From assembly GCA_039679675.1 (NCBI GenBank), contig JBDKUN010000033.1:64001-128000 (forward strand): a DNA stretch of 64,000 bases, read 5' to 3'. The position numbers and the translations under genes were made by a program. The notes under the pieces were generated by a model, which was given only the letters and a program-made list of their open reading frames with translations, ran no database searches and was not told where the DNA came from. Below are positions 25,880-39,768 of this stretch, in pieces. Numbering within the stretch: the stretch's first letter is position 1; every line of letters starts with the position of its first letter. The DNA is from Armatimonadota bacterium (GTDB lineage: Bacteria > Armatimonadota > UBA5829 > DTLH01).

Positions 25880-26971
25880 ATGGGCAGAGTAACGATTCGT
25901 AAAATAATAGAGAAGGTTCATGTTGATAATCCTGATGCGCTAGAAATGGTTGATGTTGAATTCATTCGCTTATTTAACGAGTGTGCGCGTAATGAATTCA
26001 GTGTTTCTGAGCCAGAATCGAAATGGCAATTCTGGAGTATAGAACGAGCAAGAAAGGCAATAAAGGCGGAAAAACTAGGTGGATTGAAAGAAAGAGACAA
26101 AAGACGGTTTCTTTTGTTGCTAGACCAGTATCGTAAGGCTGCAGAATCAATCTATCAAATGCCCACTATATTTAGTATTTCTACAAGTCACTTGCAGGAT
26201 ATATGGGAAGCGGTCAACAAAGAAAGAAATAATGAAATAGAAACAACAAAGAAGATGATTAAAGAGGCAGAATCGATAGATCATACAGCAAAGGAAGGTA
26301 AAATCTTTTCAGCAAAGGAGCTAAAAACTCTGGAAGATGTAATAAAGCGTGCACGCATTATTCTGAAGAAAACTACAGATGCTGCAGAAAAAGCTATACC
26401 AGCACAACAAGCCATGAAAGAAAACATACTATCGACATCAGAACATGTTTATCCTTCTGCATTCGTTTATTTGATCGCGATTCTCGATAGCTTTATTGCT
26501 GATACATTAAGGTTCATATATACAATGCATCCACATCAGATGCAAACCAAGTTTACTCAACACACAAGGAAGGAAAATGCTGAGTTAAAACGAGTGGATT
26601 ACCAAACGATATTTCAGAGTGGTTCCTACTCAGCATTGATCAACCACATAGTGGAACAAGAGGTCGGATTGGTAACAAACAGAAATATTACATTGCAATT
26701 TACTGCAATGGAAAATTGCGGTATTGACTTATCCAAAATCGATAAGCTTGATGCGGTAGAAATCACTGCCACTCGCAACATATACGTACACAATGCAGGG
26801 AAAGTTAATGAAATATACCTTGATACGACGAAAGAATATTGGTCTGCGCTCAAAAAACGGACACCATTCAAGATTGGGCAGGTTCGACCAATTGACAAAG
26901 ATTACTTTGAGCATGTGGGACCATTAATTGAAGGCGTGTTAATAGCTGTTAAGGAATTTATAACACCTTAA
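25880..26971 (+). CDS. AT-rich hypothetical protein with HEPN-like RxxxxH motif
   Basis: TRNIYVHNAG near C-terminus; visibly lower GC than neighbours. Confidence 0.6.
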   Translation: MGRVTIRKIIEKVHVDNPDALEMVDVEFIRLFNECARNEFSVSEPESKWQFWSIERARKAIKAEKLGGLKERDKRRFLLLLDQYRKAAESIYQMPTIFSISTSHLQDIWEAVNKERNNEIETTKKMIKEAESIDHTAKEGKIFSAKELKTLEDVIKRARIILKKTTDAAEKAIPAQQAMKENILSTSEHVYPSAFVYLIAILDSFIADTLRFIYTMHPHQMQTKFTQHTRKENAELKRVDYQTIFQSGSYSALINHIVEQEVGLVTNRNITLQFTAMENCGIDLSKIDKLDAVEITATRNIYVHNAGKVNEIYLDTTKEYWSALKKRTPFKIGQVRPIDKDYFEHVGPLIEGVLIAVKEFITP

Positions 26972-26983
26972 TTAGATCAGTAT

Positions 26984-27760
26984 TTATCTATGTGGTTTGC
27001 ACGCAAGAAGTGCTGCTCCAAGAGCGCCGGTCATCTGTGGGTTCGGCGCTGTTGAAACGGGATGCCCCAGGACCCGTTCCAGAGCTTTGTCCATTCCGGG
27101 GACGAGTGCGACTCCGCCGGTGAAAACTACAGGGGGAATAACTGATTTTCCTGCCATCGAGGTGATTCTGGTCGCTATGGAGTTCTGGACACCAGCAACT
27201 ATGTCTTCAGGTGCTGTGCCGGATGCCAGAAGCCCGATGATCTCCGTTTCCGCGAATACTATACACATGCTGCTGATCGCTGCGGGGGTTATACTCTTCG
27301 ATGCAAGCTCTCCGAGTTCAGCCAGTTCCACGCTCAAACGGTCTGCGACGACTTCGAGAAAGCGCCCTGTGCCTGCGGCGCATCTGTCATTCATCATGAA
27401 GTCCTGTACGGAGCCGCCGGGGCCGAGCTTCAGGAGTTTGCTGTCCTGTCCGCCTATTTCTACGACTGTACGAGCAGAGGGAACAAGGTGATGCACACCG
27501 CGGGCGTGGCAGGTGATCTCTGTTATAGTCGTATCGGCGATGCTGATGGTGTTTCGCCCGTAGCCGGTCGCTACGATCTTTTGGACATCCTCGGAGTTGT
27601 GGCTGCTGTCCTTTAGAAGATGCTCGTAAAGCTCCATTGCCAGATCATTGCTCTTTACACCCTGTCCAACCGTTCCTGATGCGATGACTTCGTGCGTCTC
27701 GGTATCCACCAGGACTATTTTTATTGCTCTTGATCCGGCATCTATTCCAACCCCGATCAT
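26984..27760 (-). CDS. ATP-dependent activase (HgdC/BcrAD/DCCP-R, ASKHA family)
   Basis: GIDAGS, ATGYGR, EITCHARG, IGGQDSK, MNDRCAAGTGRFLE, SSMCIVFAE. Confidence 0.95.
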   Translation of the reverse strand: MIGVGIDAGSRAIKIVLVDTETHEVIASGTVGQGVKSNDLAMELYEHLLKDSSHNSEDVQKIVATGYGRNTISIADTTITEITCHARGVHHLVPSARTVVEIGGQDSKLLKLGPGGSVQDFMMNDRCAAGTGRFLEVVADRLSVELAELGELASKSITPAAISSMCIVFAETEIIGLLASGTAPEDIVAGVQNSIATRITSMAGKSVIPPVVFTGGVALVPGMDKALERVLGHPVSTAPNPQMTGALGAALLACKPHR

Positions 27761-29127
27761 TACTTCCTCCACTCTCTTGCGGTTTCTATCAGTGCTTCAA
27801 TTCTGGTCATTATCATCGGCTGCATCGAATCAGTAAGCGGCGGCACTTCTATTTCCACCACCGGCAGATTCAGCTTGGCCTTAATGATCCTGCCTATTAT
27901 CGCGCCTTCTGTGGCGCAGTGGCTTGCTCCCGGTATCTTTGAAATTAGGACTGCCTCCGATCCGAAATCTTCGATGTCATTACATATACGCTCTGCCCGG
28001 TCATGAGAACTCCCGACCATCGGGTCAGCAAGCGCCATTCTTGCGAGTGCTTCCATCGGATGCAGGTCTTCAGGTATTTCATCCAACGCATGCGCGAAAA
28101 GGTAGTCGGCCCCGCATATCCGCCCGCCGCAGTCTTCCAACAAATTCATTGCACGCAAATCTGCGACAGGGTTCACCCAGAATATACGGACAGAGTCCTC
28201 CGGCAGTATCCCAATACCTGAGTTTATGCGATTTTGCACTTCAGTGAGCAAATCCTGAAGCACCGCGGCGGTCTCTTCCCTGTCGGAGCAGAAATGGATA
28301 GCGAGCATCTCGGCTATCTGCATCTCAAGCGCGGGCATCGGGCATATCTTCGCGGTAAAAACAGCTTTTCGAAGCTCAGAAAGAGTCTTCCGCACTTTAT
28401 TTGCGGCGCGAATCCCGGCCCTCAGCATATCATCCGTCAGTTTATATCCTGAAAGCTGTTCTAACGCAGTCTTGACCTGCTCAAGCTCGGACTTTACGAA
28501 CGCTACCTGCTCGGATGATGCATAAAACCCGCCCGGAAGCCGGATTGCATCTTCATTTGGGCCTGGTTTATGTCTCGCGGGCATTTCCCACCAGTTGATC
28601 GGATATCCAAGCCCCTCAAGACGCTGCGCAATGGACGAAAAATCATCGCAGGTCGCTCCGACGCTGCATGTGAGCATATCGGGAATCGGAAAATGCGCTT
28701 CGGTGACGAATGCTCCGAGCATCGCGCGCACCGGGCAGAATGATTCATCCAGCCCGTATGATGCGGCAAGATTTAGCAGCCCCTCGCTCATTTCCATGAT
28801 GCATGGAGTCCACCAGGCGCCGTCCGGGTAAAATGCTACCACATTCGGGAGCGAATACGCCATCACCGGGACCGTGCCAAGGTCTTTCATAGTCCCGACA
28901 AGCTTCTTACCTTTGGCTCGGGCCTCCCGCAGCCGGTCTTCTTCGGTCAAAAGGAAGTTCCAGAGCCTGAGCGCTGCTGCGGAATCATCATACCGGAGCT
29001 TGAGCAGCCTGAGGTCTCCATCATCAACGTGTCTTCGGAGCGGGCCGCCGTACCAGGGCTCGTTCAGACCTGCTTCTTTCAACTCGGCATAGCGCCTGTC
29101 CCAGTCACTCAAGGTAATTCCGCTCAT
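27760..29127 (-). CDS. 2-hydroxyacyl-CoA dehydratase / double-cubane family protein
   Basis: FCPVRA, ATCDD, SHCATE, IEV..TRIEALIE. Confidence 0.85.
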   Translation of the reverse strand: MSGITLSDWDRRYAELKEAGLNEPWYGGPLRRHVDDGDLRLLKLRYDDSAAALRLWNFLLTEEDRLREARAKGKKLVGTMKDLGTVPVMAYSLPNVVAFYPDGAWWTPCIMEMSEGLLNLAASYGLDESFCPVRAMLGAFVTEAHFPIPDMLTCSVGATCDDFSSIAQRLEGLGYPINWWEMPARHKPGPNEDAIRLPGGFYASSEQVAFVKSELEQVKTALEQLSGYKLTDDMLRAGIRAANKVRKTLSELRKAVFTAKICPMPALEMQIAEMLAIHFCSDREETAAVLQDLLTEVQNRINSGIGILPEDSVRIFWVNPVADLRAMNLLEDCGGRICGADYLFAHALDEIPEDLHPMEALARMALADPMVGSSHDRAERICNDIEDFGSEAVLISKIPGASHCATEGAIIGRIIKAKLNLPVVEIEVPPLTDSMQPMIMTRIEALIETAREWRK

Positions 29128-30089
29128 TTGATCGACTCCATAAAGGCCTGGATTCTCGATGATGTGCGTATATCAACAATCCCATCGTCATTCGCGTCAA
29201 TCTGGATAAACGGCAGGCCGGACCATTCCTTCAAACGATACGCCTCTGCGTTCCAGTTGTCGCACCAGAGATAACGGCGGAGGATTATGCCTCGCACCCC
29301 GCGTTCTGCAAGTTTCAGTTTGAGCCACTTGAACAGCTCGCTGTTCGGCCTCCTGAATGCGTCTGGAATAGTATTAAAATATGAATCAGCCAGCGCCGCC
29401 ATTGGGTTTTCGTTAAGCAGCCTTCTATCAAACGGCGCTGGAAGTGTCCGCTCACCCGTTTCGGTGGCGTCCAGCGCTACATATCCACCGGCCTTCTCGA
29501 TAAAATCGTATAAGCTGTATTGATTAGCTGGAACAGGCCCGCCGACAAGTGCAACCGGGATGCCGGACGGCACATGCCTCATAGCTGGAACCGCCTGATC
29601 AAAATCTCCAGTTCTATTGAAATCAGCTAAACGAAGAGCCCATTCCCTCGGCGAAAGGCTTCCCTGAAGGTCACGGAGTACGGCTCTCTTATTGTCATAT
29701 TCGAACATCATCTGTTTGAGCAAATCAGGGGTGGGGGTGCTGCCTCCAAGCGCAATCAGAAAATCTCCCAGCCGCTTCAACTCAGAAGCATACAGCTTTT
29801 GCGATTCCACTGTCTGCCAGGTATGCGGTAAGTGCATCAAAAACGCCGGTAGATCAGTGTTTTCAGTGATGATGTCATAAATCCGCCTCATCTGGTCGCA
29901 GGCGGTTGTTACTATGACCCCGGCAGCGGTTTTCTCCTCGATGGAAGCACCTGCAAATGAACAGGCGTAAGGGCACACTCCCGGCCCCAGATTAAGGCTC
30001 GATCTGTCCGGCGATATTCTCGACGGCGATAACCCATATGCCGCAATCCACTCAGCCGGGACGAACGGACAACTGTAGATGATCTTCAA
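29124..30089 (-). CDS. 2-hydroxyacyl-CoA dehydratase family subunit
   Basis: YSCPFVPAEWIAA, VCPYA, TACDQMRR, WCDNW, SRIQAFME. Confidence 0.85.
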   Translation of the reverse strand: MKIIYSCPFVPAEWIAAYGLSPSRISPDRSSLNLGPGVCPYACSFAGASIEEKTAAGVIVTTACDQMRRIYDIITENTDLPAFLMHLPHTWQTVESQKLYASELKRLGDFLIALGGSTPTPDLLKQMMFEYDNKRAVLRDLQGSLSPREWALRLADFNRTGDFDQAVPAMRHVPSGIPVALVGGPVPANQYSLYDFIEKAGGYVALDATETGERTLPAPFDRRLLNENPMAALADSYFNTIPDAFRRPNSELFKWLKLKLAERGVRGIILRRYLWCDNWNAEAYRLKEWSGLPFIQIDANDDGIVDIRTSSRIQAFMESIK

Positions 30090-30092
30090 GCT

Positions 30093-31349
30093 TCAGTCCC
30101 CGCAGCAGCTCGGCGCAGTACACGCATTTTTGACCGTCTCGAAAAGCGCCTCGACCCTGACGGCAATCCGCGCGGAGTCAGAAGGCGAATAGTCGGTTTC
30201 AATCCTCAAGAACGGGACATGCAGCTCATTTTCGGCAAGCTGTTTCACCCGGTAAGATTCGATGCTGTAAGTAATGCACGCCTGCCATGCGAGGTCTATT
30301 ATGCACTCAGCACGGTACTGCCTCGCAATGTCGCGGATTGCGTCGATCCTACGATTGTTCTTCGTCATAACCGAGCAATGCAGATTGAAATACTTTGCAG
30401 CGAGCGCGCGGACCGGGTCGTCTGCATCGGCATCGACGTTTTCCAGAATCGGCTTTAAGCCAGTGCAGTTTTCGGCACAGACTATCAATCCGCCGTGGTC
30501 TTCGATAATATCGATTACCCTTTCCGCCCCATGAACTACCGGAACTCCGGTCAAAAGTACCCTTACTCTAGACGATCTATCGCCATTACCCGATTGTCCC
30601 TCGTATAACTTAACTGCCTTTTCATACTGCTCCAGATCGGCTGGTATGCCTGATATAGTGCTCTTAAGCTCTAGCAACTGCCGGCCTGTAATTGGTGGAC
30701 TATCCAGCTTCATAAGCTCAGCAAGCCGAAGCCTGAGCGCGCGCTCATGGTTCATTAAATCAATTGCTTCTCTGATCTTTTTATCTGTAATCTCTACATT
30801 GAACCGTTTTTCAAGCTCAAATATGAGCTTTTTCAGCTCAAGCACCCAGTGTTCAAATGCGTCGGCATCATCCTGTTTTTGCGGAAGCTCCATTATGTAT
30901 GTCGGTCTCGTCTCAGCCATCAGCTCGAACATCTTCTTCTTGCCGTCGCAGGTGGTCTCTGCGATGATAAGGTCTGCCATTTCAAGAAATGGATTGGAAC
31001 CAAGCGTATGGTAGCCGAATGTTGATTTGATGAGCGGACACAGGTTCGACGGCAGCGTCTCTTCTGCTGCAGGAATTGTCGCAGCAGAGCCGCCACAGAG
31101 GCACACAGGAACACCTCCTGCCGCCATTATCAGCTCTCTTGGGGCGTATTCGCACATAATCCCGACAACCGGCCTGCCTTCGGACTTTGTCTTTTCGGCG
31201 TAGTCCAGGCAGTTGTCGATCATATTATCGAACCAAGCAAGTGGTGCGGAGGAAATATGCCCGGTGGAGCAGGGCAGAGCGCTCGGAGGATTGCATGGAT
31301 CGCAGCTTTCCTTGTGAATATTCTTGTTATTGCCACAGCATCCGCTCAT
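30093..31349 (-). CDS. Double-cubane-cluster protein (DCCP)-like anaerobic reductase
   Basis: MCEYAPREL, NLCPLIKS, ETTCDGKKK, ENCTG, HCSVM, ACITY, ETDYS; extra CC motifs at both termini. Confidence 0.88.
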   Translation of the reverse strand: MSGCCGNNKNIHKESCDPCNPPSALPCSTGHISSAPLAWFDNMIDNCLDYAEKTKSEGRPVVGIMCEYAPRELIMAAGGVPVCLCGGSAATIPAAEETLPSNLCPLIKSTFGYHTLGSNPFLEMADLIIAETTCDGKKKMFELMAETRPTYIMELPQKQDDADAFEHWVLELKKLIFELEKRFNVEITDKKIREAIDLMNHERALRLRLAELMKLDSPPITGRQLLELKSTISGIPADLEQYEKAVKLYEGQSGNGDRSSRVRVLLTGVPVVHGAERVIDIIEDHGGLIVCAENCTGLKPILENVDADADDPVRALAAKYFNLHCSVMTKNNRRIDAIRDIARQYRAECIIDLAWQACITYSIESYRVKQLAENELHVPFLRIETDYSPSDSARIAVRVEALFETVKNACTAPSCCGD

Positions 31350-31361
31350 CTTATTCAGTCC

Positions 31362-32168
31362 CTAGTCTTTCTTATGTGCAACAAACAATCCTTGAATGAT
31401 TTTACCGGCATGTGCGAGTTCTTGGATGAACATCATCTCGCCAGCAAGCGCCTTAAAGAGTTCTGTATCATAACCGATGGTTCTCAGCGCGTCGGAAGTG
31501 AGCTGCATATCGAGCATAGCGAGGTAAAGGTCTACACATGGAGCATATCTCCCGGTATCCTCGCAAATCTTCACATCGCAGCCGCTTGCCGTGAGTAAAT
31601 CGCAGTAGCCGTTTGTGTCCTGTAGGTTCGGGAACTTCATGAACCGCATAAACCGGTCGGCTTCGTCTTTTGTAAGTCCGGCAGGTCCCTCAATCCAGTC
31701 GGTGAAGGCAATAGTCCCGCCCGGCTTTACCAGACGCGCAGCTTCGGCTATCAACTGCGGTTTGTCTTCGACATAGCACCATGCGTCCTCGCCCCAAATG
31801 AAGTCGGCAGTGGAATCGGGAAGCCCGCTGTCGCAGGCATCGGCGAGCGTAAATGTGGCTCTATTGCCAAAACCTTCTTCCGCACACCTGTACTTTGCGC
31901 GGTTCATTACTTCTTCTGTCGCATCGACTCCGTGCATGTGTTTTACATCCTGGAACCTCAGAAGAAACCTCATTCCGGCGCCGTTGCAGCAGCAGAGATC
32001 GATTCCGTAGCCTTTTCCGGCCACTTTGGCCTTTTCGGCAAGGTCCATGGAGGATTTGAATCCGCCTATGTGGATCTGGTGGCCCATAATCAGTTCCCAA
32101 AGATTACCTTCCGGCCCGCTGTACACTGATTGAACGTCACATAACCCTATTCCTTGAATGCCTTTCAT
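31362..32168 (-). CDS. Class I SAM-dependent methyltransferase with CCC in motif I
   Basis: GIDLCCCNGAG, GVD, DFIWGEDAWCY, LVKPGG..FTDW. Confidence 0.85.
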   Translation of the reverse strand: MKGIQGIGLCDVQSVYSGPEGNLWELIMGHQIHIGGFKSSMDLAEKAKVAGKGYGIDLCCCNGAGMRFLLRFQDVKHMHGVDATEEVMNRAKYRCAEEGFGNRATFTLADACDSGLPDSTADFIWGEDAWCYVEDKPQLIAEAARLVKPGGTIAFTDWIEGPAGLTKDEADRFMRFMKFPNLQDTNGYCDLLTASGCDVKICEDTGRYAPCVDLYLAMLDMQLTSDALRTIGYDTELFKALAGEMMFIQELAHAGKIIQGLFVAHKKD

Positions 32169-32184
32169 TGCCCGTCCCCTTTCT

Positions 32185-34107
32185 TTATCTTAAGAGCCTT
32201 CTATCCCCGTCTCTTCTTGTTAAGCAGGTGCTGTCAAAGTATTCCAGAAGCGCAATTGCGTATTTTCGTGAAACCGAGAGAAGATCGCGCAGTTCGGCAG
32301 CTGTAATCCCGCCGTTTGCCTTGATGTACTCGATAACGGACTTTTTCGCTTTCTCAAAGGTGTCTCTATGATATGTGACCTTGTCACTTAAACGCAGTAA
32401 TTGTCCCTGGTCAATAAGGCTCTTCATAACGTTATCGAAGACCTTTGGTGAAAGCCGCAGTTCCTCCATCACATCATCTTCGAGAGGAGTCGAGTAACCA
32501 GCAGCTAAGAAAACCGACTCTATCCTATCTGCCGCCCTCTGTTCGGCATCTGAGAGCTTCGATTGATGGTCCGAGAGTCCAACTTTGTTGTCCCTTTTTA
32601 CCAAAATCTTATTCTCAGCAAGTTTCGAGACAATTGCATCGAAAACCTGCCGGTCGGCAAGCTTCAAGAACCTGGATTGCAGGTCTGCAGCAGGCATCAT
32701 CGTCTTGTAAGCGTCTTTTGAGTAGTAGTCCTTGATAATCTCGATCAGTTTTGCCGTCAGCTCATCGAACCTGTCTTTTTGAAGATACTTCTCTTGAGCG
32801 CCTGAAGCTATCAAGGCGAGCTTTCCAACACTTATAAGCGATTTTATAACTTCGGCTACCTCTGATTCGCTCTCTTCGACGGCAAAAGCAATCTCCGAGG
32901 CAGTCTTTGGCGCGAATCTGGACTTGAAGAAGGCATGATCGACAACATCAGAGATGCAACCTTCGAGCTTCTCCAGTCCTTCGATTGCGGTTTTATCGAA
33001 ACGCTTATGATGCGCGGGCTGTGAGTCGAGTATTGTCCCACCTCCGATGGTCTCCTGCGAAGAGAATGACCGTATGACGAACCTGTCTTTAGGGAGCGCA
33101 ACCGTAGGCGACTCCAGCACAAGCTGCGCATAGCCGGTCTCGCCTGGTATAAGTGTTTCTGCGTCCAGAAGCACTGTGCGGCACATCACCTCGTCTGTCC
33201 CGACGTGCAGCCTGACACGGGTGCGGTTCTTCAGCTCGTCATTGTAGCTCTGAGACACGAAAAGCCGGACATCGAGAAGCGTAGTAGGGGAGAGCGAGCC
33301 GGGAGCGCAGGCGACCTGCCCGCGTCTTAATTGATCCTTCTTCACATCCTGAAGGTTGATAGCTGTGCGCCTGCCGAGATAAGACCTTTCCTTGCTCTCA
33401 TTGTGAATCTGTATTCCGCGGACTCTTGCATTTAGTCCATCGGGCATTATCTCCAGCCTGTCGCCGACATTTACCTCGCCTGATAATACCGTCCCCGCAA
33501 TGACCGCGCCGAAGCCCTGCAACGCAAAAACGCGGTCTACAGGCATCCTGAATATTCCGCTGTCCCGGCGTTTTTTGGTCTTCCCGGCAACAGAAATGAG
33601 GGCAGACCGCACTTCATCGACCCCGGCTCCGGTAATTGCCGAAACAGGGATAATCGGTTGGCTTTCGAGGAATGTCCCGGCGACGAGACTTTCAATATCT
33701 GACTTAACGATGCGTATATGCTCATTGTCTACGAGATCGGCCTTAGTGATTGCAATAATCCCGGTCTCTACTCCGAGGATTCGCAGAATATCAAAGTGCT
33801 CGCGCGTCTGGACATTGATTCCCTCGTCAGCGGCTACTACCAAGAGCGCTGCGTCTATATTGCTTGCGCCTGCAACCATCGTCTTGATGAGCTTTTCATG
33901 TCCGGGGACATCAATGAAGACGATTTGCCGGTCGAGCCCTGGCGTCTCCAAAAAGGCGAAGCCGAGCTCGATTGTGATTCCACGCTTTTTCTCTTCTGTA
34001 AGCGTGTCACAATCAAAGCCGGTGAGCGCTTTAACCAAAGCTGTCTTTCCGTGATCGATGTGCCCGGCAGTCCCAATTATTGTTTGTTCAATCTCAATAA
34101 GTGTCAT
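32185..34107 (-). CDS. selB: Selenocysteine-specific elongation factor
   Basis: GTAGHIDHGKT, GITIELGF, DVPGHE, C-terminal SRKYAIALLEYFD..TRRDGDRR; start moved to ATG 34107. Confidence 0.97.
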   Translation of the reverse strand: MTLIEIEQTIIGTAGHIDHGKTALVKALTGFDCDTLTEEKKRGITIELGFAFLETPGLDRQIVFIDVPGHEKLIKTMVAGASNIDAALLVVAADEGINVQTREHFDILRILGVETGIIAITKADLVDNEHIRIVKSDIESLVAGTFLESQPIIPVSAITGAGVDEVRSALISVAGKTKKRRDSGIFRMPVDRVFALQGFGAVIAGTVLSGEVNVGDRLEIMPDGLNARVRGIQIHNESKERSYLGRRTAINLQDVKKDQLRRGQVACAPGSLSPTTLLDVRLFVSQSYNDELKNRTRVRLHVGTDEVMCRTVLLDAETLIPGETGYAQLVLESPTVALPKDRFVIRSFSSQETIGGGTILDSQPAHHKRFDKTAIEGLEKLEGCISDVVDHAFFKSRFAPKTASEIAFAVEESESEVAEVIKSLISVGKLALIASGAQEKYLQKDRFDELTAKLIEIIKDYYSKDAYKTMMPAADLQSRFLKLADRQVFDAIVSKLAENKILVKRDNKVGLSDHQSKLSDAEQRAADRIESVFLAAGYSTPLEDDVMEELRLSPKVFDNVMKSLIDQGQLLRLSDKVTYHRDTFEKAKKSVIEYIKANGGITAAELRDLLSVSRKYAIALLEYFDSTCLTRRDGDRRLLR

Positions 34108-34122
34108 TTTGAAACACGAATT

Positions 34123-34412
34123 CCCTATGCATCGGGACCGCAGTTCGTCCCGATGCACGACATTCACAAATTTAAAAAGTTTCTTCGCTTCGCTAGCCTG
34201 TATTGTTCGAAGAAAATACAGGCAGAATGACATTGTTGCTTCGGACCGCTTGCTGCCGAAGCGTTCGCCGCAGGCGGACTTCACCCTATGCTTCGGGATC
34301 GCAGTCCATCCTACTACCCCGTGGACCTACTGGACCACGGGGGTATTAACCGTGGACCTACTGGACCACGGGGGTATTAACCGTGGTCTCACCGGACCAC
34401 GTGGAGAAGCAC
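34123..34412. repeat. Composite palindromic cluster between selD and selB, with a 31-nt tandem repeat
   Basis: Family C hairpins at 34123-34172 and 34235-34305; CCGTGGACCTACTGGACCACGGGGGTATTAA x2 (34319, 34350) plus a degenerate third at 34381. Confidence 0.8.
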
Positions 34413-34454
34413 AAGTCTCCACAAAACCCACTCCTAAATCCTGAATTCTAACTC

Positions 34455-36032
34455 CTAAATCTTATTCATAACCGATTCGTAAAACATCCTGACAGGTGCG
34501 CCGCCGAAAGAGATCGCCATCCACACTGCCTCGTCAATCTCTTCTTCGCCGATCCCCATGCCCCGCGCCTTATTGATGTGAATTTTGATGCATGGCTCGC
34601 ACTTGGATAAAACCGACAGTGAAATTGCCATAAGTTCTTTTGTTCGGAGTGAAACTGCGCCAGGTGCATTGACTGTGCGCATAAAGTCACCGAATATCTC
34701 TTCTGCTGTTGATTGCGTACTCGTTTTTGTCTCAACTGGCGCGGCACAGCAGTCTGCACTCATTGATGAGCAGCAGGCTCCGTCATTTGGTTCTGGCATA
34801 TCAGCACTCTCCTTACGCGTCGGGGTATATGTCCCACTGCTGGTTCTCAAGAGGATTCTACCTTCTGATTTTGAGATGACTTTCCCTATAACTGTCGCAT
34901 GGCTAACGCCCCGTGACCTGAGCTTTTCGACCAATGCGCCGGATTTTGCCTCAGAAATGGCTATCAAAAGCCCTCCAGAGGTCTGCGGGTCGTACAGGAC
35001 GTGGACTATTTCTTCCGGTACATCGCTCGATACGGAAACACGGCTGGAGGCGTATTCGCTGTTTCTCTCGATACCGCCGGAGATGTATCCCTGTGCAACA
35101 TAGTCTAATATTTCATCAAAAACCGGCACTTGATCGGTGTAAACTTCTGCCGTAACGCCGCTCTGCGATACCATCTCGCCGAGGTGTCCCAGAAGGCCGA
35201 ATCCAGTTACATCCGTAGCCGTCGTGACTCCCATCTCGCTAATAACCTCGGCGGCAGCCTTGTTTAGCTCGGTCATGGACTTCGCTGCAGCGGCCAGTGC
35301 AGCGCCGGATGCTTTTCCCATCTGCCCTGCAAAGCTGATGATGCCGACTCCGAGCGGTTTTGTAAGCACCAATAGATCACCAGGCTGCGCTTTATCGTTT
35401 GTAATGATTCTGGACGGATTGACTATCCCCGTGACGGCGTAACCGAACTTGGGGTCTTTGTCGTTGACGCTGTGCCCGCCTATGATTGCAACCCCGGCTT
35501 CCTGCATTTTGTCCATCCCGCCGCGAAGCATCTGGGCCATTATCTCGTGACTCAATGTTTCGATAGGAAAACCGATTACCGAGAGCGCTGTCATCGGCTT
35601 TCCGCCCATCGCATAGACATCACTGAGTGAGTTCGCGGCGGCTATCTGGCCGAAGGTGTACGGATCGTCTACACTTGGCGTGAAAACATCCACTGTCTGA
35701 ACAAGCGCGGTATCTTCGTCAATTTTGTAGACACCGGCATCGTCGCACGTGTTCGTGCCGACAAGAACGCGAGGGTCCGACACCTGCGGGAGCCCGGAAA
35801 GTACCTTTTTTAAGTCATTCTGGTTGATCTTGGAGGCGCAGCCTGCCTTCTCGACTAGCGTTGTGAGATTAACATGCTCAATCGTCTGTTCCGGGCGCTC
35901 TCCGGCGCACGGACATATATTCTTATTTTTGAAAGTGTCGCAAGGGCAACCCTGCTTGGGGTTACAGATGCAGTGCCCCAGCTTTATGGACCGCTGCATG
36001 ACTCGGCGTCTTTTTTCGATGTCTATTTTCAT
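34455..36032 (-). CDS. selD: Selenophosphate synthetase fused to an N-terminal Cys-rich domain and a C-terminal AhpD/CMD domain
   Basis: AGCASK, DDAGVY, QTVDVF, AAANSLSDVYAMGG, GGHS, TDVTGFGLLGH, DPQTSGGLL; N-term CICNPKQGCPC..CPC; C-term KELMAIS..CEPC..H. Confidence 0.95.
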   Translation of the reverse strand: MKIDIEKRRRVMQRSIKLGHCICNPKQGCPCDTFKNKNICPCAGERPEQTIEHVNLTTLVEKAGCASKINQNDLKKVLSGLPQVSDPRVLVGTNTCDDAGVYKIDEDTALVQTVDVFTPSVDDPYTFGQIAAANSLSDVYAMGGKPMTALSVIGFPIETLSHEIMAQMLRGGMDKMQEAGVAIIGGHSVNDKDPKFGYAVTGIVNPSRIITNDKAQPGDLLVLTKPLGVGIISFAGQMGKASGAALAAAAKSMTELNKAAAEVISEMGVTTATDVTGFGLLGHLGEMVSQSGVTAEVYTDQVPVFDEILDYVAQGYISGGIERNSEYASSRVSVSSDVPEEIVHVLYDPQTSGGLLIAISEAKSGALVEKLRSRGVSHATVIGKVISKSEGRILLRTSSGTYTPTRKESADMPEPNDGACCSSMSADCCAAPVETKTSTQSTAEEIFGDFMRTVNAPGAVSLRTKELMAISLSVLSKCEPCIKIHINKARGMGIGEEEIDEAVWMAISFGGAPVRMFYESVMNKI

Positions 36033-36036
36033 ACCA

Positions 36037-37428
36037 CTACTCATTCCTAAAGATAGCTCGAATCGCATCTACCACGTTGCTGTCTTCATTCGGCTGAATT
36101 GTCCTGAAGTCGAACAACACCGACTCCTGATGTATACGCGCAAATATCGGAGTGTCGTTATATCTGAGTTTTCTTGCGAGCGAATCGGCAGACATGTTCT
36201 CAGACTTCACACTGAGGAGTTTTGTTGCTATAGTTTCGGCGGGAACAGACCCGCTCCCGACCTGTGATCTGCCATCTATTACGGATACCTCTGCTGATAT
36301 ATCTCCGAGCTTGTCAGCCACAGCCTGCACACGTCTGTCGAGCTCATCCAGCGGGGTAGAAAGCATTCTGTAAGTCGGATGCCTCTCCTCCAGCCTGTCG
36401 GGACCCAAAAATAGCTTGAGAGTAGCCTCCAGTGCCGCGACTTCCATCTTTCCGACTCTGAGAGCCCTTGCGAGCGGATTTTTCTTGATCTTTTTGATGG
36501 TCTCTTCCATCCCGATGATAATCCCGGACTGCGGCCCGCCGATCAGCTTGTCTCCGCTGAAGCATATCGCATCGCATCCCGCCTTCACACTTGCCTGCAC
36601 CATCGGCTCAGACTCAAGCCCGTATTTGGTAAGGTCAACTAGCGCGCCGCTTCCCAGGTCGTCGATAATTGGGATGCCATGTTCCTTCGCAAGTGGGGCC
36701 ATCTCTTCAACAGTAGGCTCTGCAGTGAACCCGACTATCCTGTAGTTACTCTGGTGGACGTGCAGGATGGCTCCAGTGTTCTCATTTATGGCTGCAGCGT
36801 AGTCTCGAAGGTGAGTTTTGTTCGTAGTTCCGACTTCGCGCATGATCGCGCTGCTCGCTGCCATCACATCAGGCATACGAAACGCACCGCCGATCTCTAC
36901 TAACTGACCACGGGAGACGATTACTTCTTTACCGGCTGCAATCGTGTTCAGAATCAGCATTGTGGCGGCAGCATTGTTGTTCACAATGGTCGCCGCTTCA
37001 GCTCCGGTGAGTTCACAGAGCAGTCTGCTTATGTGGATGTCCCGGCTGCCTCTCTGTCCCGTCTCAATATCAGTCGCAAGGGTGCAGTAGCCTTTTATAA
37101 CATCACTTACCGCCGTAGCGGCAGCTTCAGAGAGCATCGCTCGTCCAAGTCCAGTATGAAGTATGATTCCTGCGGCGTTTATGGCGTGCCGTATAGACGG
37201 CCTGAACTCGGCTTTGATGTATTCCAGAACTATCCCGCCGACGTTCTCAGGTGATAGGTCCATCTCCGGCCCATCTTCACTGATGATTCGGCTGCGTAGC
37301 TTGTCCACGACTTTCCGGCATGAGTCGGCGAGAAATTCACGGTCATGATCATCTAGCGCACTCTTCAGCGCTTCCGTATTCATCAATTCATCTATTGCAG
37401 GCAGTTTCCGCAGGATGTCTTTCTTCAT
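36037..37428 (-). CDS. selA: L-seryl-tRNA(Sec) selenium transferase
   Basis: INAAGIILHTGLGRA, VNNNAAA, SRGQLVEIGGAFR, EVGTTNKTH, DDLGSG, FSGDKLIGGPQ. Confidence 0.97.
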   Translation of the reverse strand: MKKDILRKLPAIDELMNTEALKSALDDHDREFLADSCRKVVDKLRSRIISEDGPEMDLSPENVGGIVLEYIKAEFRPSIRHAINAAGIILHTGLGRAMLSEAAATAVSDVIKGYCTLATDIETGQRGSRDIHISRLLCELTGAEAATIVNNNAAATMLILNTIAAGKEVIVSRGQLVEIGGAFRMPDVMAASSAIMREVGTTNKTHLRDYAAAINENTGAILHVHQSNYRIVGFTAEPTVEEMAPLAKEHGIPIIDDLGSGALVDLTKYGLESEPMVQASVKAGCDAICFSGDKLIGGPQSGIIIGMEETIKKIKKNPLARALRVGKMEVAALEATLKLFLGPDRLEERHPTYRMLSTPLDELDRRVQAVADKLGDISAEVSVIDGRSQVGSGSVPAETIATKLLSVKSENMSADSLARKLRYNDTPIFARIHQESVLFDFRTIQPNEDSNVVDAIRAIFRNE

Positions 37429-37463
37429 TGAATGTCCCTCAGGTTATCTCAAGTCTCAAATAT

Positions 37464-37501
37464 AAAAAACGGGGGCTGACGCATCACGTCAACCCCCGTT
37501 T
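37464..37501 (-). terminator. Intrinsic terminator-like hairpin just upstream of selA
   Basis: Minus strand GGGGGTTGACG-TGATG-CGTCAGCCCCC followed by GTTTTTT. Confidence 0.7.
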
Positions 37502-37539
37502 AATACTGAATTCTGCCCGAAATAGTTGTAATAACTCTA

Positions 37540-38253
37540 CTATCTTGTCCAGATAGTATCTTTTATCGTTACTTTAAATGGGCCGGTTTGAAGCACAGGG
37601 CGAACTGTGACACGTCCTTTTACACTTGATGGTATTCCCCCGGAATACGTGCATGTGCCGCCTCACCCATACTTGAATGACCCACTCCAGACCACCTTGC
37701 CAGTGCTGTTTATTACTTTGAAGCGTGGAGGGTCGGTTTCTCCATCAGATTTTTTGATTACACATTTGTTGTTGCCCTGAGCAGTAACTACGTTGAGGTC
37801 CAGATCTGCTTTGTTGCCGTGCTTGGTGACTTTTATGGACGCGATGAAAGGCGGGCCAAAATTAAGTTTCTGAGCCTTATTCGCCGAGATATCGATCTTG
37901 AGCGTATTACCAGGCGATATAGATGCGGTCCAGCTCACATTGTTCTTATCTTTAGCTATCGCGTCGCAGCCCCAGACATCATGATTACCGACAGGTAAAA
38001 GCAGCACACCATTAGTGGTAGAATATTCGCTGATTTTCCTGCCTGAGTTGCTGAACGTCGTAAGTACAGCATTCCCATGGTAAGGAAGAGTCACTTTTCC
38101 CATCTTACCTTTGTACGTTTTGGGGTCAAAGCGCTCGAATCCAAGAGTGCCGCTCTTGGCGGAATAGCTGGTTATACCGATTGCCACGAGCGCGCATACA
38201 CCGGCCAAAACTGATGCCATGATTTTTCTGGAGTTCTTTTGAATTGTGGTCAT
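37540..38253 (-). CDS. Putative exported selenoprotein (237 aa with Sec; YGUGGTC motif)
   Basis: TGA at 37663-37665 is followed in frame by GGTCTYSGGIPSSVKGRVTVRPVLQTGPFKVTIKDTIWTR then TAG; SECIS-like hairpin; N-terminal signal/TM; GGAGG SD; next to selA. Confidence 0.75.
37632..37648 (-). promoter_or_regulatory. Candidate bacterial SECIS element 1
   Basis: GTATTCC-GGG-GGAATAC stem-loop starting 14 nt after the UGA; G-containing loop. Confidence 0.65.
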
Positions 38254-38327
38254 TCTTCTTTTCTCACCTCCTTTCGCAGTAGCATTAATGAATCTCAGGT
38301 ATTAACCGAAACGCCATAGGCGGGATT

Positions 38328-39113
38328 CTACTTGGAGCCAAGTTTCAAATGGCCGATTGGTGTGCAGTCCAGGCACCTGATGCATTCGGCACTGTTAATA
38401 TCGTCAACCGGGTCAATATCGACCGGGCATTTCTTTGCGCATGCGCCGCAGTGAGTGCACTTGTTCATCGCAAGACGCATCCTGAAAATGGATATTCTAT
38501 TGAAAAGCGAGAATATAGCGCCGAGCGGGCAGAACATCCTGCAGAAGCCGCGAGTGACGAGTATCGTAAATATGAAGAACGCAGCCAGAATAGAGACCCT
38601 CACATAAAACATAAGGTTCATAGGAGATGTCTCGTGCAAAAACAGCCGGCGAGGAAGAGCTGATTCCAATGTCCCAGACGGGCAGAAATTACAGAATGAG
38701 TATGGTGCGCCGGGAAAGAAAAACGGCACGATAAATACCAGCCCGACAAGAACAAGATACTTTGTGTATCTGAGCGGCCGCGGGATCGAGAACTTTTTAA
38801 CAGGGATTTTTGATAATAAATCCTGCAGCAGCCCGAACGGACATATCCATCCGCAGACCAGCCTGCCGAGGAAAGCGCCGACCAGTCCGAGTATCCCTAA
38901 AGTGACGAATGGAATGATCCTGAACGTTGAAAAGTTCACGAGCACGCCGATAGGGCAGGCGAACATAGAGAGCGGACACGAATGACAGTAAAGCGCCGGA
39001 CAGCATATGGTCTTCAGATCAAAATAGGGAAGACCCAGGATCACTAGCGCGATAAACTGGCTCAGATAGCGCAATCTCGTTAATCGTTTAGTTTTTTTGA
39101 TTATGGACCCCAT
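38328..39113 (-). CDS. Membrane 4Fe-4S binding protein (NapH/MauN/YccM-like)
   Basis: CHSCP..ACPIG, CGWICPFG, CNFCPSG, FCRMFCPLG, CTHCGACAKKCP, CIRCLDC with TM helices. Confidence 0.88.
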   Translation of the reverse strand: MGSIIKKTKRLTRLRYLSQFIALVILGLPYFDLKTICCPALYCHSCPLSMFACPIGVLVNFSTFRIIPFVTLGILGLVGAFLGRLVCGWICPFGLLQDLLSKIPVKKFSIPRPLRYTKYLVLVGLVFIVPFFFPGAPYSFCNFCPSGTLESALPRRLFLHETSPMNLMFYVRVSILAAFFIFTILVTRGFCRMFCPLGAIFSLFNRISIFRMRLAMNKCTHCGACAKKCPVDIDPVDDINSAECIRCLDCTPIGHLKLGSK

Positions 39114-39119
39114 AATCAA
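39097..39119 (-). promoter_or_regulatory. Candidate bacterial SECIS element 2, overlapping the next start codon
   Basis: Perfect 10-bp stem TTGATTATGG-GGT-CCATAATCAA starting 15 nt after the UGA. Confidence 0.65.
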
Positions 39120-39128
39120 TCCTCTCTA

Positions 39129-39419
39129 TTACAGTCAAGTAGGGCACGCTTTGCCGCCGGATTTGGACTTTCCGGACTTTTTGTTATCTTTGGATATACT
39201 CGGATTTTCAGCAGGAACTTCCAGCTTTCCGTCTTTGCCGCGGATAACGCTATGGGTCAGGCTGAGTTCCGTTATGGTGAACTCGCTTTTTGAGGATTTT
39301 CCTGCATTGTATTTGACGAAAAAGGTGGAATACAGGATGATCCCCGCGAAGATAACCAACAGGGCAATAAGGAGCAAGGGGCGCGTGCTTCGATTTGTAG
39401 TGATATTCTCTTCGGACAT
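39129..39419 (-). CDS. Putative small membrane-anchored selenoprotein (96 aa, C-terminal CPTU-L)
   Basis: Single TM; reads TGC CCT ACT TGA CTG TAA TAG, a CxxU motif followed by a tandem stop; SECIS-like hairpin downstream. Confidence 0.7.
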
Positions 39420-39567
39420 GCTTCTATCCCCTTTAGCATCTACTGAGTTTCAGGTGTCACCCGAAACTCTCCCGAAAGATTTCGGTAATAGTTGGTATAT
39501 GGTTGGTCTCTAATTGAACAGCCGAAAATTACAGTAGCGACATTACAACAACCGCATCTACATAAAA

Positions 39568-39596
39568 AGTCTATTCCCCAAACCGGCTGTTGTCAA
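39568..39596 (-). promoter_or_regulatory. Sigma70-type promoter of the selenoprotein operon
   Basis: Minus strand TTGACA-17-TAGACT. Confidence 0.65.
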
Positions 39597-39692
39597 TACC
39601 GTATTTAAGACTATCACATCCTATATGAGTCACAGTAGAGATTAACACTAATATATATGTGATGAATATTGTGCGGAGTGTCACAAAAAATA

Positions 39693-39721
39693 TTGACAGG
39701 TGTAGTTGACTCACATATACT
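39693..39721 (+). promoter_or_regulatory. Sigma70-type promoter of the divergent large gene
   Basis: TTGACA-17-TATACT. Confidence 0.7.
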
Positions 39722-39768
39722 GAAACTACTTGCAATAGATGAGCTGGTAGTCTGGGAGGATCGTATCC

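Follow-up and report, generated by a model that had tools for sequence, protein, structure and literature searches.

Two predicted selenoprotein families in a conserved bacterial gene set with a SelD-AhpD fusion and a double-cubane reductase/methyltransferase cassette

Selenoprotein genes and genes for double-cubane proteins occur together in an emerging class of gene neighbourhoods, to which the set described here belongs. This set lies at positions 26984-39419 of a 64,000-nucleotide stretch of DNA, referred to below as the window, from contig JBDKUN010000033.1 of an uncultured wastewater bacterium of the phylum Armatimonadota. It was first described in a prediction made from the letters of the window (the original prediction), which read it as a candidate new selenium-dependent redox and methylation system. 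The comparisons reported here firmly indicate a conserved multi-phylum system in which two selenoprotein families that had gone unrecognised accompany a specialised SelD and a rigid cassette of reductase and methyltransferase genes.

A system of related composition is the selenocysteine-assisted organometallic (SAO) system of Clostridioides difficile and other anaerobes (Haft and Gwadz, bioRxiv 10.1101/2022.07.06.499078). Like the window set, SAO is a multi-gene neighbourhood with several overlooked selenoproteins that are truncated in databases. According to the same source, SAO genomes are enriched in double-cubane proteins, and 955 of the 970 strong matches to the double-cubane family NF040772 come from SelD-containing assemblies, a tie for which selenium-compound processing or a selenium-bridged cluster was proposed. 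The co-occurrence of an NF040772 double-cubane cluster protein (DCCP) with selenocysteine (Sec) is also found in the window, where the DCCP gene stands in the same run as selA, selB and selD. The differences are nevertheless clear. The window set contains neither a MerB-like lyase nor an ABC transporter, its Sec motifs are YGUGGxC and a CPTU tail instead of the CU of SAO, and sel genes with a SelD-AhpD fusion form part of the conserved set. In an NCBIfam scan, SaoL, SaoA, SaoB, SaoP, SaoX, SaoC, SaoT, SaoD and SaoE were matched by none of the eleven window proteins, which supports the original prediction that the set differs from SAO. Its remark that no ABC transporter is present holds for this window, but not for four to five related metagenome loci. 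These carry an ABC ATPase whose best match is SaoA (238 bits, cut-off 360) and a binding protein resembling SsuA/SaoX (SaoX 41 bits, cut-off 300).

A second relevant group consists of the type I mlp gene clusters (MGCs), in which corrinoid methyltransferases, a DCCP and selABCD are tied to methyl-selenide use (PMC10418091). MGCs share with the window a methyltransferase and a DCCP with its reductase next to selABD, and the same source proposes that they supply selenium for selenoproteins. In contrast to the corrinoid proteins and MtaA-like (URO-D family) methyltransferases of MGCs, the window encodes a class I S-adenosylmethionine (SAM)-type methyltransferase, and a Pfam scan found no B12-binding or URO-D domain among the eleven proteins. 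Such genes do occur in the relative G263, where the UGGxC gene is separated from selA by genes for a B12-binding corrinoid protein and a URO-D/MtaA-like methyltransferase (L069, 5080-7856), an arrangement similar to that of MGCs.

The host genome (G000) is 3.1 Mb in size and 98% complete. The eleven genes are co-oriented on the minus strand, with unrelated plus-strand housekeeping genes on both sides, and follow in transcription order as tail selenoprotein, Fer4_5 protein, exported selenoprotein, selA, selD, selB, methyltransferase, DCCP, two HGD-D proteins (X1 and X2) and activase. Proteins were identified with Pfam and NCBIfam scans, the latter with release 20, which includes recent selenoprotein models (UXX-star, Tso and Sao families). 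These scans reproduce the run and the gene order as first described. The near gap-free packing noted from selB to the activase is likewise found, the first three junctions being spacers of 16, 12 and 3 nt and the last two overlaps of 4 and 13 nt. The first three genes, together with the hairpins that resemble a selenocysteine insertion sequence (SECIS), are as follows:

39129..39419, minus strand: predicted small membrane-anchored selenoprotein (tail protein), 96 aa (94+2), with the Sec TGA at 39137-39135 and the TAA stop at 39131-39129
39097..39119, minus strand: SECIS-type hairpin of the tail gene, GATTATGG-GGT-CCATAATC, 17 nt past the TGA, with the ATG of the next gene (39113) in its 5' arm
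38328..39113, minus strand: NapH-like Fer4_5 membrane Fe-S protein (PF12801, 61.5 bits, cut-off 22)
37540..38253, minus strand: predicted exported selenoprotein, 237 aa, with a signal/anchor peptide, two beta-sandwich domains and U197 in a YG-U-GG-T-C loop
37631..37649, minus strand: predicted SECIS hairpin of the exported gene, GTATTCC-GGG-GGAATAC, 14 nt past the TGA and within the coding sequence, with its loop starting 21 nt past the TGA

The exported UGGTC protein is judged to be a real selenoprotein because its TGA and the flanks are conserved, database matches end at the Sec position, a homologue (P0114) carries Cys there, the SECIS covaries, and the genome encodes a tRNA-Sec elsewhere (68.4 bits) in addition to selA, selB and selD. 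The cryptic selenoprotein proposed at the outset is thus upheld. Its Sec codon, TGA 37665-37663, follows 196 aa, and read-through adds 41. With TGA read as Sec, the protein runs ...FKYG-U-GGTCTYSGGIP... and continues for 40 residues past Sec. A query with this single protein gave matches in 8 of the 41 genomes searched (G000 and relatives), and 13 of the 16 matches listed hold exactly one TGA. A six-sequence profile extended the family to 44 of 401 Armatimonadota genomes, again with one TGA in nearly all listed matches. In the alignments, conservation after the TGA equals that before it, and a motif scan across loci counted 62 distinct GUGGxC sites.

Among 1.84 billion representative sequences, a profile of the family gave 1673 clusters with E values up to 1e-3, of which 358 remained at E <= 1e-10. 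The majority of the top 150 matches, including the database entry of the window protein itself, stop exactly at profile position 158, the residue preceding Sec, and such entries are evidently gene calls truncated at the TGA. In full-length homologues the Sec position is occupied by Cys in P0114 (CGGVC) and by G, Q or I in others. A pattern scan of contigs with Cys in place of Sec found five loci, a number that is no measure of a narrow distribution.

The hairpin behind the TGA also behaves as a decoding signal should. A bacterial SECIS has been modelled as a hairpin with a G in a small apical loop, located 16-37 nt past the UGA (PMC13188914), and the exported-family element agrees with this model, its loop lying at 21 nt. 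Across 58 distinct sequences, 92.2% of the cells are paired, and five of the eight pairs show compensatory changes. The covariation score was reached by none of 500 shuffles, and slid controls were 24-58% paired. The element takes the form GTAYTCC/GRRTAC in Armatimonadota and GGTACTCG-TGG-CGAGTRCC in metagenome relatives.

No Pfam or NCBIfam family matches the exported protein, even at E <= 1, and the sole GUxG family of a 2026 selenoprotein review (NF049953) does not match it either. An AlphaFold2 model (pLDDT 78.6) consists of a disordered N-terminal signal/anchor segment and two beta-sandwich domains, with the Sec loop as the least confident part of the second domain. Fold searches with this model (Foldseek against the PDB, and VIA-align) returned only generic beta-sandwich matches of immunoglobulin-like or fibronectin type III kind. 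The best Z was 8.8, for the second domain only, and no SoxY-like match was listed. An analogy may be drawn with the GGCGG carrier arm of SoxY, which we take to be a comparable glycine-flanked chalcogen residue on a periplasmic beta-sandwich protein.

Several further members of the UGGxC group were encountered. A longer paralogue lies on the plus strand of contig C22 of the host genome (about 57789-59237; L027 7789-9237), where 429 aa are followed by U and then GGVCEYSVRIP... This paralogue (...GKFG-U-GGVC...) has its own GTATTCC...GAATAC hairpin, and no Fer4_5, tail-protein or sel genes were detected near it. In several loci a second subfamily, GFG-U-GGxCxYSVR, stands directly behind the first UGGxC gene. 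Its open reading frames (ORFs) are truncated at TGA, have no Pfam family and measure 224-275 aa (L025 4251-4970, L066 5209-6036, L067 12946-13674, L068 338-1012), and a member in L069 (near 4842) is known from its Sec site alone. A relative of the exported protein with 27% identity occurs on an uncultured Pirellulales contig (L032 2435-2962), where the motif scan gave no GUGGxC site.

The first gene of the run encodes a protein with an N-terminal transmembrane helix, a conserved SE..SL...R...G.L segment, a Lys-rich linker and the C-terminus ACPT-U-L. This protein, too, is judged to be a real selenoprotein because the C[PAS]TU ending is kept in all homologues, the hairpin behind it covaries, and a Fer4_5 gene comes next in 20 of 21 cases. 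The original prediction of a cryptic CxxU membrane selenoprotein is therefore confirmed by the conserved TGA with its second stop and by the covarying SECIS. All six Armatimonadota homologues found by tblastn end in CPTU, one residue and a stop. Metagenome members were found by clustering unexplained ORFs in a manner blind to TGA, and the eight genuine ones, from eight loci, all end in C[PAS]TU, two residues and a stop, the ninth ORF of the cluster being an unrelated upstream frame. The family can be aligned over its whole length, and two relatives carry a long Lys/Pro/Ala-rich spacer ahead of the tail. The gene was also recovered by a genome-wide screen for TGA with a nearby Cys and a hairpin, which gave 228 candidates; eight others that were inspected were non-coding-looking frames.

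The hairpin of the tail gene has an unusual position. It was aligned in 21 distinct genes, where it lies 15-20 nt past the TGA and has 94.6% of its cells paired. Compensatory changes occur in five of eight pairs, none of 500 shuffles reached the score, and slid controls were 17-46% paired. By reading of the alignment, the ATG or GTG of the next gene falls within the 5' arm in 20 of the 21, and the signal predicted to decode Sec in the tail gene is thus one that overlaps the start site of its Fe-S partner gene.

No Pfam family matches the tail protein, and neither the window protein nor two metagenome members matched any NCBIfam model at E up to 1, the UXX-star families NF041114 and NF041211 included. 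The tail resembles these two families in that its Sec lies one or two residues from the C-terminus and near a Cys. It also recalls the GCUG tail of thioredoxin reductase, which we assume to be a fair comparison. In metagenome relatives, basic residues precede the helix and acidic ones follow it, and the charges around the helix suggest that the tail is located outside the membrane.

The protein encoded by the overlapping gene shares with NapH, MauN, NosR and CcoG a Fer4_5 domain, a CX3CP motif behind each of two membrane helices and a C-terminal pair of 4Fe-4S motifs. Its match to TIGR02163 (NapH/MauN) reaches 57.1 bits and lies below the cut-off of 213. In 14 homologues each of the four helices is followed by an invariant Cys motif: CxxCP-x5-CP (helix 1), CGWxCP (helix 2), CxxCP (helix 3) and CRxxCP (helix 4). 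The two C-terminal motifs, of ferredoxin type, are likewise invariant. Compared with NapH/MauN, the CxxCP-x5-CP and CxxCP motifs of the predicted outer loops are additional, as is the translational entanglement with the gene for the Sec tail. The positive-inside rule, applied to the charge distribution, and the topology of NapH would place the two CX3CP motifs and the clusters on the cytoplasmic side and the other two Cys motifs in outer loops. A predicted complex of this protein with the tail protein gave a median of 0.26 (mark 0.32), which counts neither way for binding.

The second block of the run contains the selenocysteine genes:

36037..37428, minus strand: selA (TIGR00474, 563.5 bits, cut-off 267.9)
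34455..36068, minus strand: Cys-type SelD with a C-terminal AhpD/CMD-like domain, CEPC...H (TIGR00476, 378.7 bits, cut-off 125; PF02627 at residues 458-526)
32185..34106, minus strand: selB (TIGR00475, 370.6 bits; ORF open to 34284)

The active-site region of SelD reads AG-C-AS-K, and the Cys with a Lys three residues on is what we take to be the catalytic motif. Vicinal cysteines occur in a CC...CC linker between the kinase and AhpD-like parts, GACCSSMSADCC, and an N-terminal segment reads HCICN..CPCD..CPC. The AhpD-like domain matches the fusion families ArsM_AhpD_UU and MduS. Ndh-SelD and NifS-SelD are likewise Cys-type SelDs fused to a redox or selenium-delivery domain (PMC4561486, PMC2398784), but in these the fusion is N-terminal, whereas the window protein carries its AhpD-like CxxC domain at the C-terminus in addition to the N-terminal Cys-rich segment. 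The available portions of the SelD-fusion literature consulted (PMC2398784, PMC13188914) make no mention of a C-terminal AhpD fusion.

SelD is present in 220 of the 401 Armatimonadota genomes, the majority as a frame of about 350 aa with one in-frame TGA (Sec-type). The 14 genomes with an exported-family match at E <= 1e-25, designated the core UGGxC genomes, all have a SelD frame of 530-600 aa without a stop. Two of them, G015 and G026, possess both types, with the long SelD situated in the locus. The host genome has only this one SelD, and its single molybdopterin enzyme is free of in-frame stops. Long stop-free frames without a UGGxC match were seen in seven more genomes (G098, G031, G082, G155, G333, G070 and G188).

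For selB, the start most likely lies near 34106 and not at 34284, because homologues align only from residue 44-67 on and the sequence there reads as a start. The spacer between selD and selB would then measure about 350 nt. At 34319-34401 this spacer contains 2.7 tandem copies of a 31-nt palindromic unit, whose 22-nt core is present in nine copies in the genome (C10, C24, C33 four times, C42, C62 twice). This repeat looks like a dispersed element similar to repetitive extragenic palindromes.

The third block is a cassette of five genes:

31362..32168, minus strand: class I SAM methyltransferase of a distinct family (PF08241; motif I DLCCCNGAG)
30093..31349, minus strand: DCCP, 418 aa (NF040772, 416 bits, cut-off 350; PDB 7YYL E 3e-61, 6ENO E 9e-61)
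29124..30089, minus strand: HGD-D protein X1, 321 aa (PF06050, 124.9 bits; invariant Cys 39, 64 and 276)
27760..29127, minus strand: HGD-D protein X2, 455 aa (PF06050, 128.7 bits; eight conserved Cys)
26984..27772, minus strand: ATP-dependent [4Fe-4S] activase of HgdC/BcrAD type (TIGR00241, 267.5 bits, cut-off 125.4)

The methyltransferase family is highly conserved, and so are its cysteines: an alignment of 36 sequences shows Cys59-61 and Cys131 without exception, and Cys112 and Cys197 in 97%. Its best NCBIfam match is the DVU_1556 family, with 43 bits below a cut-off of 155, and other sub-cut-off matches are ArsM-type selenoprotein families fused to AhpD-like domains. An assignment as ArsM was rejected, the scores being 32-35 bits against cut-offs of 240-510. 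The nearest relatives of solved structure are phosphoethanolamine (E 5e-15) and sarcosine/dimethylglycine N-methyltransferases. Among nine long homologues, a fusion to an HGD-D domain was seen in two. P0158, a 566-aa protein whose source is given as the dinoflagellate Cladocopium goreaui, shares 44% identity with the methyltransferase, the alignment covering 94% of its length.

The original prediction counted three double-cubane proteins, and this part of it does not stand. Only the protein at 30093-31349 passes NF040772, and it is a bona fide DCCP like that of the Carboxydothermus hydrogenoformans DCCP/DCCP-R pair (PDB 6ENO, 7YYL). Cys66, 83, 85, 104, 134, 295, 325 and 358 are 100% conserved in 43 sequences, the spacing between the fourth and fifth Cys (156-160) is shorter than the published 166-170, and partly conserved Cys-rich tails are added at the start (MSGCC...) and end (...PSCCGD). 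X1 and X2 reach 82.8 and 70 bits against NF040772, below the cut-off of 350. Together with one activase they instead look like a heterodimer of the benzoyl-CoA reductase (BCR)/2-hydroxyacyl-CoA dehydratase (HAD) type, with a layout resembling BzdNO-PQ (PMC11971306). In class I benzoyl-CoA reductase, a catalytic [4Fe-4S]-OH2 cluster bound by three Cys lies in one subunit and an [8Fe-9S] cluster bound by six Cys in the other, and the superfamily includes a desulfidase that abstracts sulfur at the cluster (PMC11971306). The cysteine counts suggest that X1 may provide the three-Cys site and X2 the many-Cys one, as in BCR. In contrast to BCR, HAD and DCCP, X1 and X2 lie far below every curated cut-off, and no CoA-ester metabolism genes are found nearby.

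Within Armatimonadota, the envelope genes and the sel genes are closely associated. In 13 of the 14 core genomes, selA and/or selD stand beside the UGGxC gene, and the 14th locus ends at a contig edge. The full trio of tail, Fer4_5 and UGGxC genes is present in nine of these loci, one has a tail gene without a detectable Fer4_5 gene, and in four the fetched stretch contains neither. Wherever the core-locus SelD could be followed (11 of 11), it reaches over the AhpD-like domain. The cassette is less regularly present: X2 was found in four of the 401 genomes (G000, G001, G004 and G018), all of them core genomes, and a DCCP gene was not seen in the fetched stretch of seven of the 14. In G015 a close DCCP and an activase follow selB, and in G227, G308 and G372 a distant DCCP-like protein (31-33% identity) and an activase adjoin the sel genes.

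Outside this phylum, at least 427 relatives were detected when metagenomes were scanned with an X2 alignment, and the best 80 loci, with a GC content of 0.41-0.70, were analysed. They were annotated by similarity alone (tblastn with the eleven window proteins), and the counts are restricted to loci with enough flank. X2 is very conserved in these loci, with 62-73% identity, and the cassette order is almost invariable. X1 precedes X2 in 61 of 61 loci, the activase follows X2 in 52 of 55, DCCP precedes X1 in 42 of 45 (at least one miss being a slightly overlapping hit), and the methyltransferase precedes DCCP in 33 of 34. The selD gene lies within 1 kb behind the activase in 26 of 38 loci, and the AhpD-like domain is present in every one of the 23 SelDs that are complete on their contigs; selA and selB are apart from it on the opposite strand. 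One to four tandem UGGxC genes occur at most 5 kb upstream of the methyltransferase (19/28), selA lies further upstream (10/17), and a Fer4_5 gene is found downstream (8/16). In 14 loci a DUF3034 outer-membrane-type beta-barrel gene directly precedes the methyltransferase. The original prediction had stated that a block mostly found without sel genes would speak against it; instead, the methyltransferase/HGD-D/activase block mostly occurs with sel and UGGxC genes, in another gene order. Inherited gene order alone hardly explains this linkage, because the families recur in different order across lineages. The database relatives of X2 comprise at least 2742 clusters at E <= 1e-50, and those with names come from Armatimonadota, Planctomycetota, Phycisphaerae and Hydrogenedentes. 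Some metagenome contigs carry DUF1559 pilin-like genes, which are presumably typical of Planctomycetota, and these genes suggest an origin in Planctomycetota or their relatives.

In the window itself, two elements bear on how the run is transcribed:

39568..39596, minus strand: sigma-70-like promoter match TTGACA-17-TAGACT, 10 of 12 positions, upstream of the first gene
37467..37501, minus strand: intrinsic-terminator-like hairpin of 16 pairs, 9 of them G-C, followed by a T-run, between the exported selenoprotein gene and selA

The eleven genes had been placed below one promoter. The site is indeed present, although the region holds no excess of promoter-like sites (11 found, with a mean of 13.5 in shuffles), and a single unit is doubtful because the terminator-like hairpin splits the run after the third gene. 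This hairpin is kept, with a slightly different stem, in the same-genus genome G001 and was not found in the loci of G004 or G227. In this genus, the run is probably organised as two transcription units. An Rfam scan of 26000-40500 gave nothing meaningful, its sole match being a chance snoRNA (E 0.39). Divergent from the promoter region, a plus-strand ORF of 1244 aa without a Pfam family occupies 39769-43503.

As to function, the tentatively preferred reading, whose probability falls somewhat short of even, is selenium capture with ATP-driven reduction that feeds a dedicated SelD. Three modules would cooperate: an envelope module (the anchored CPTU-arm protein, the NapH-like four-helix Fe-S protein and at least one exported beta-sandwich protein with a Sec...Cys loop), a module of selA, selB and the specialised Cys-type SelD-AhpD with its CxxC, and a cytoplasmic module (the Cys-rich SAM methyltransferase, one DCCP, X1X2 and one activase). 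The envelope proteins would trap scarce or refractory selenium species on their Sec/Cys sites and be kept reduced via the Fe-S membrane protein. The cassette would then release selenide, using very low-potential electrons energised by ATP together with methyl transfer, and the selenide would be passed through thiol domains to the system's own SelD for conversion into selenophosphate. The methyltransferase, the least explained part, could serve to form a methylated intermediate or to remove excess selenide. An electron relay across the membrane and methyl transfer to a metalloid, both put forward at the outset, are conjectural. Among Se, As and Hg, the comparative evidence favours selenium, because SelD-AhpD belongs to the conserved set and occurs in G015 and G026 beside an ordinary Sec-type SelD. 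Acquisition is favoured by the position of selD directly behind the activase and by the way in which double-cubane proteins already track SelD, and the outer-membrane, periplasmic and membrane parts suggest uptake. Reduction of elemental selenium to selenide requires a very negative potential, about -0.7 V, which would give the ATP-driven reductases a purpose. A more specific version, in which Sec envelope carriers of refractory (elemental or organically bound) selenium, DCCP with BCR-like ATP-driven reduction or C-Se cleavage, and hand-over by AhpD make up the missing dedicated selenide route to SelD, is doubtful.

Several points weigh against selenium capture. The cassette is not obligatory, as only 4 of the 14 core UGGxC genomes have X2, and among the metagenome loci 12 of 38 lack a selD directly after the activase and 9 of 28 lack an upstream UGGxC gene. 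The 80 loci, moreover, are the best-scoring ones, mutually related and not independent. The nearest solved relatives of the methyltransferase act on small amines, not on metalloids. A selenium-uptake system that itself needs Sec poses a bootstrap problem, and sel genes often adjoin the selenoprotein genes that they serve, so that co-location is no proof of a selenium substrate. We infer that substrate, along with the membrane topology, the direction of flow and the part played by the methyltransferase.

The main rival, unlikely on present evidence, is a low-potential, SAO-like metabolism of a non-selenium substrate (an organometal or organometalloid, As, Hg, Te, or elemental sulfur/polysulfide), with the sel genes, SelD included, travelling along as its parts need Sec. 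The system's own two to five selenoproteins would make the carriage of sel genes pay, and the host genome, with only one SelD and a single molybdopterin enzyme free of in-frame stops, agrees with such a purpose. A Sec enzyme for elemental sulfur respiration has reportedly been described in recent work. The SaoA-like ATPase and SsuA/SaoX-like binding protein of four to five related loci point the same way, as does the enrichment of SAO genomes in double-cubane proteins reported in the preprint on that system, even though none of the eleven window proteins matches a Sao family. What this account handles poorly is SelD itself. In each of the 14 core genomes it takes the form of a specialised AhpD fusion, the second SelD of G015 and G026 would be needless if SelD served Sec synthesis only, and in the metagenome loci selD stands directly behind the activase while selA and selB are apart on the other strand.

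The same facts about SelD can be turned to another account, in which the enzyme supplies activated selenium for a selenium-containing Fe-S cofactor, such as a selenium-bridged double cubane, in DCCP or X1X2, and the substrate has nothing to do with selenium. Such a cofactor is a formal possibility listed by Haft and Gwadz (bioRxiv 10.1101/2022.07.06.499078), and both the selD genes directly after the activase (26 of 38 loci) and the dedicated paralogue in G015 and G026 would fit. It is improbable, however: the exported Sec proteins, the outer-membrane barrel, the Fe-S membrane protein and the methyltransferase are left unexplained, X2 is lacking in 10 of the 14 genomes with SelD-AhpD and UGGxC, no DCCP was seen in the fetched stretch of seven, and the solved clusters of DCCP and BzdN, as described in the available text, were refined with sulfur at the bridging position (PMC11971306).

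Selenium detoxification or homeostasis, with the methyltransferase forming volatile methyl selenides and the reductases and envelope proteins reducing selenium oxyanions or elemental selenium, is given a comparably small chance. The invariant cysteines of the methyltransferase would suit it, as would the weak matches of this enzyme to arsenite-methyltransferase-type families fused to AhpD-like domains and the match of the SelD domain to the same families, ArsM_AhpD_UU and MduS. Neither SelD nor a very low-potential ATP-driven reductase would be required for disposal, and the tight conservation beside selA and selB fits supply better. That the envelope trio, the sel genes and the cassette are independent units placed side by side by chance is very improbable, since the same families recur together in other orders and orientations, at GC contents between 0.41 and 0.70 and in no fewer than three additional named lineages, despite the strong terminator that parts the trio from selA in G000 and G001 and the lack of the cassette in most Armatimonadota loci.

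Both selenoprotein families appear to be missing from curated lists, namely the roughly 110 families of the 2026 review and NCBIfam release 20. In the available text of that review (PMC13188914), which counts more than 110 families and regards the in vivo selenium donor for SelD as unresolved, term searches found neither a UxxxC nor a CPTU motif, and the available text of the BSepDB paper mentions neither Armatimonadota nor Planctomycetota. Public protein sets systematically cut the exported family, with its 1673 representative clusters, short at the Sec codon, so that its annotation is widely wrong. For the tail gene, a predicted SECIS located beyond the gene it serves and including the start codon of the following one would constitute an unusual translational coupling, by which production of the Fe-S membrane partner could hinge on Sec decoding and hence on selenium supply. 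The physiological role of double-cubane proteins and the in vivo selenium donor of SelD are two questions whose genes meet here in one rigid, widely conserved cassette. If a dedicated selenide route is true, it would give double-cubane proteins their first physiological function and would explain the near-perfect co-occurrence of DCCP with SelD.

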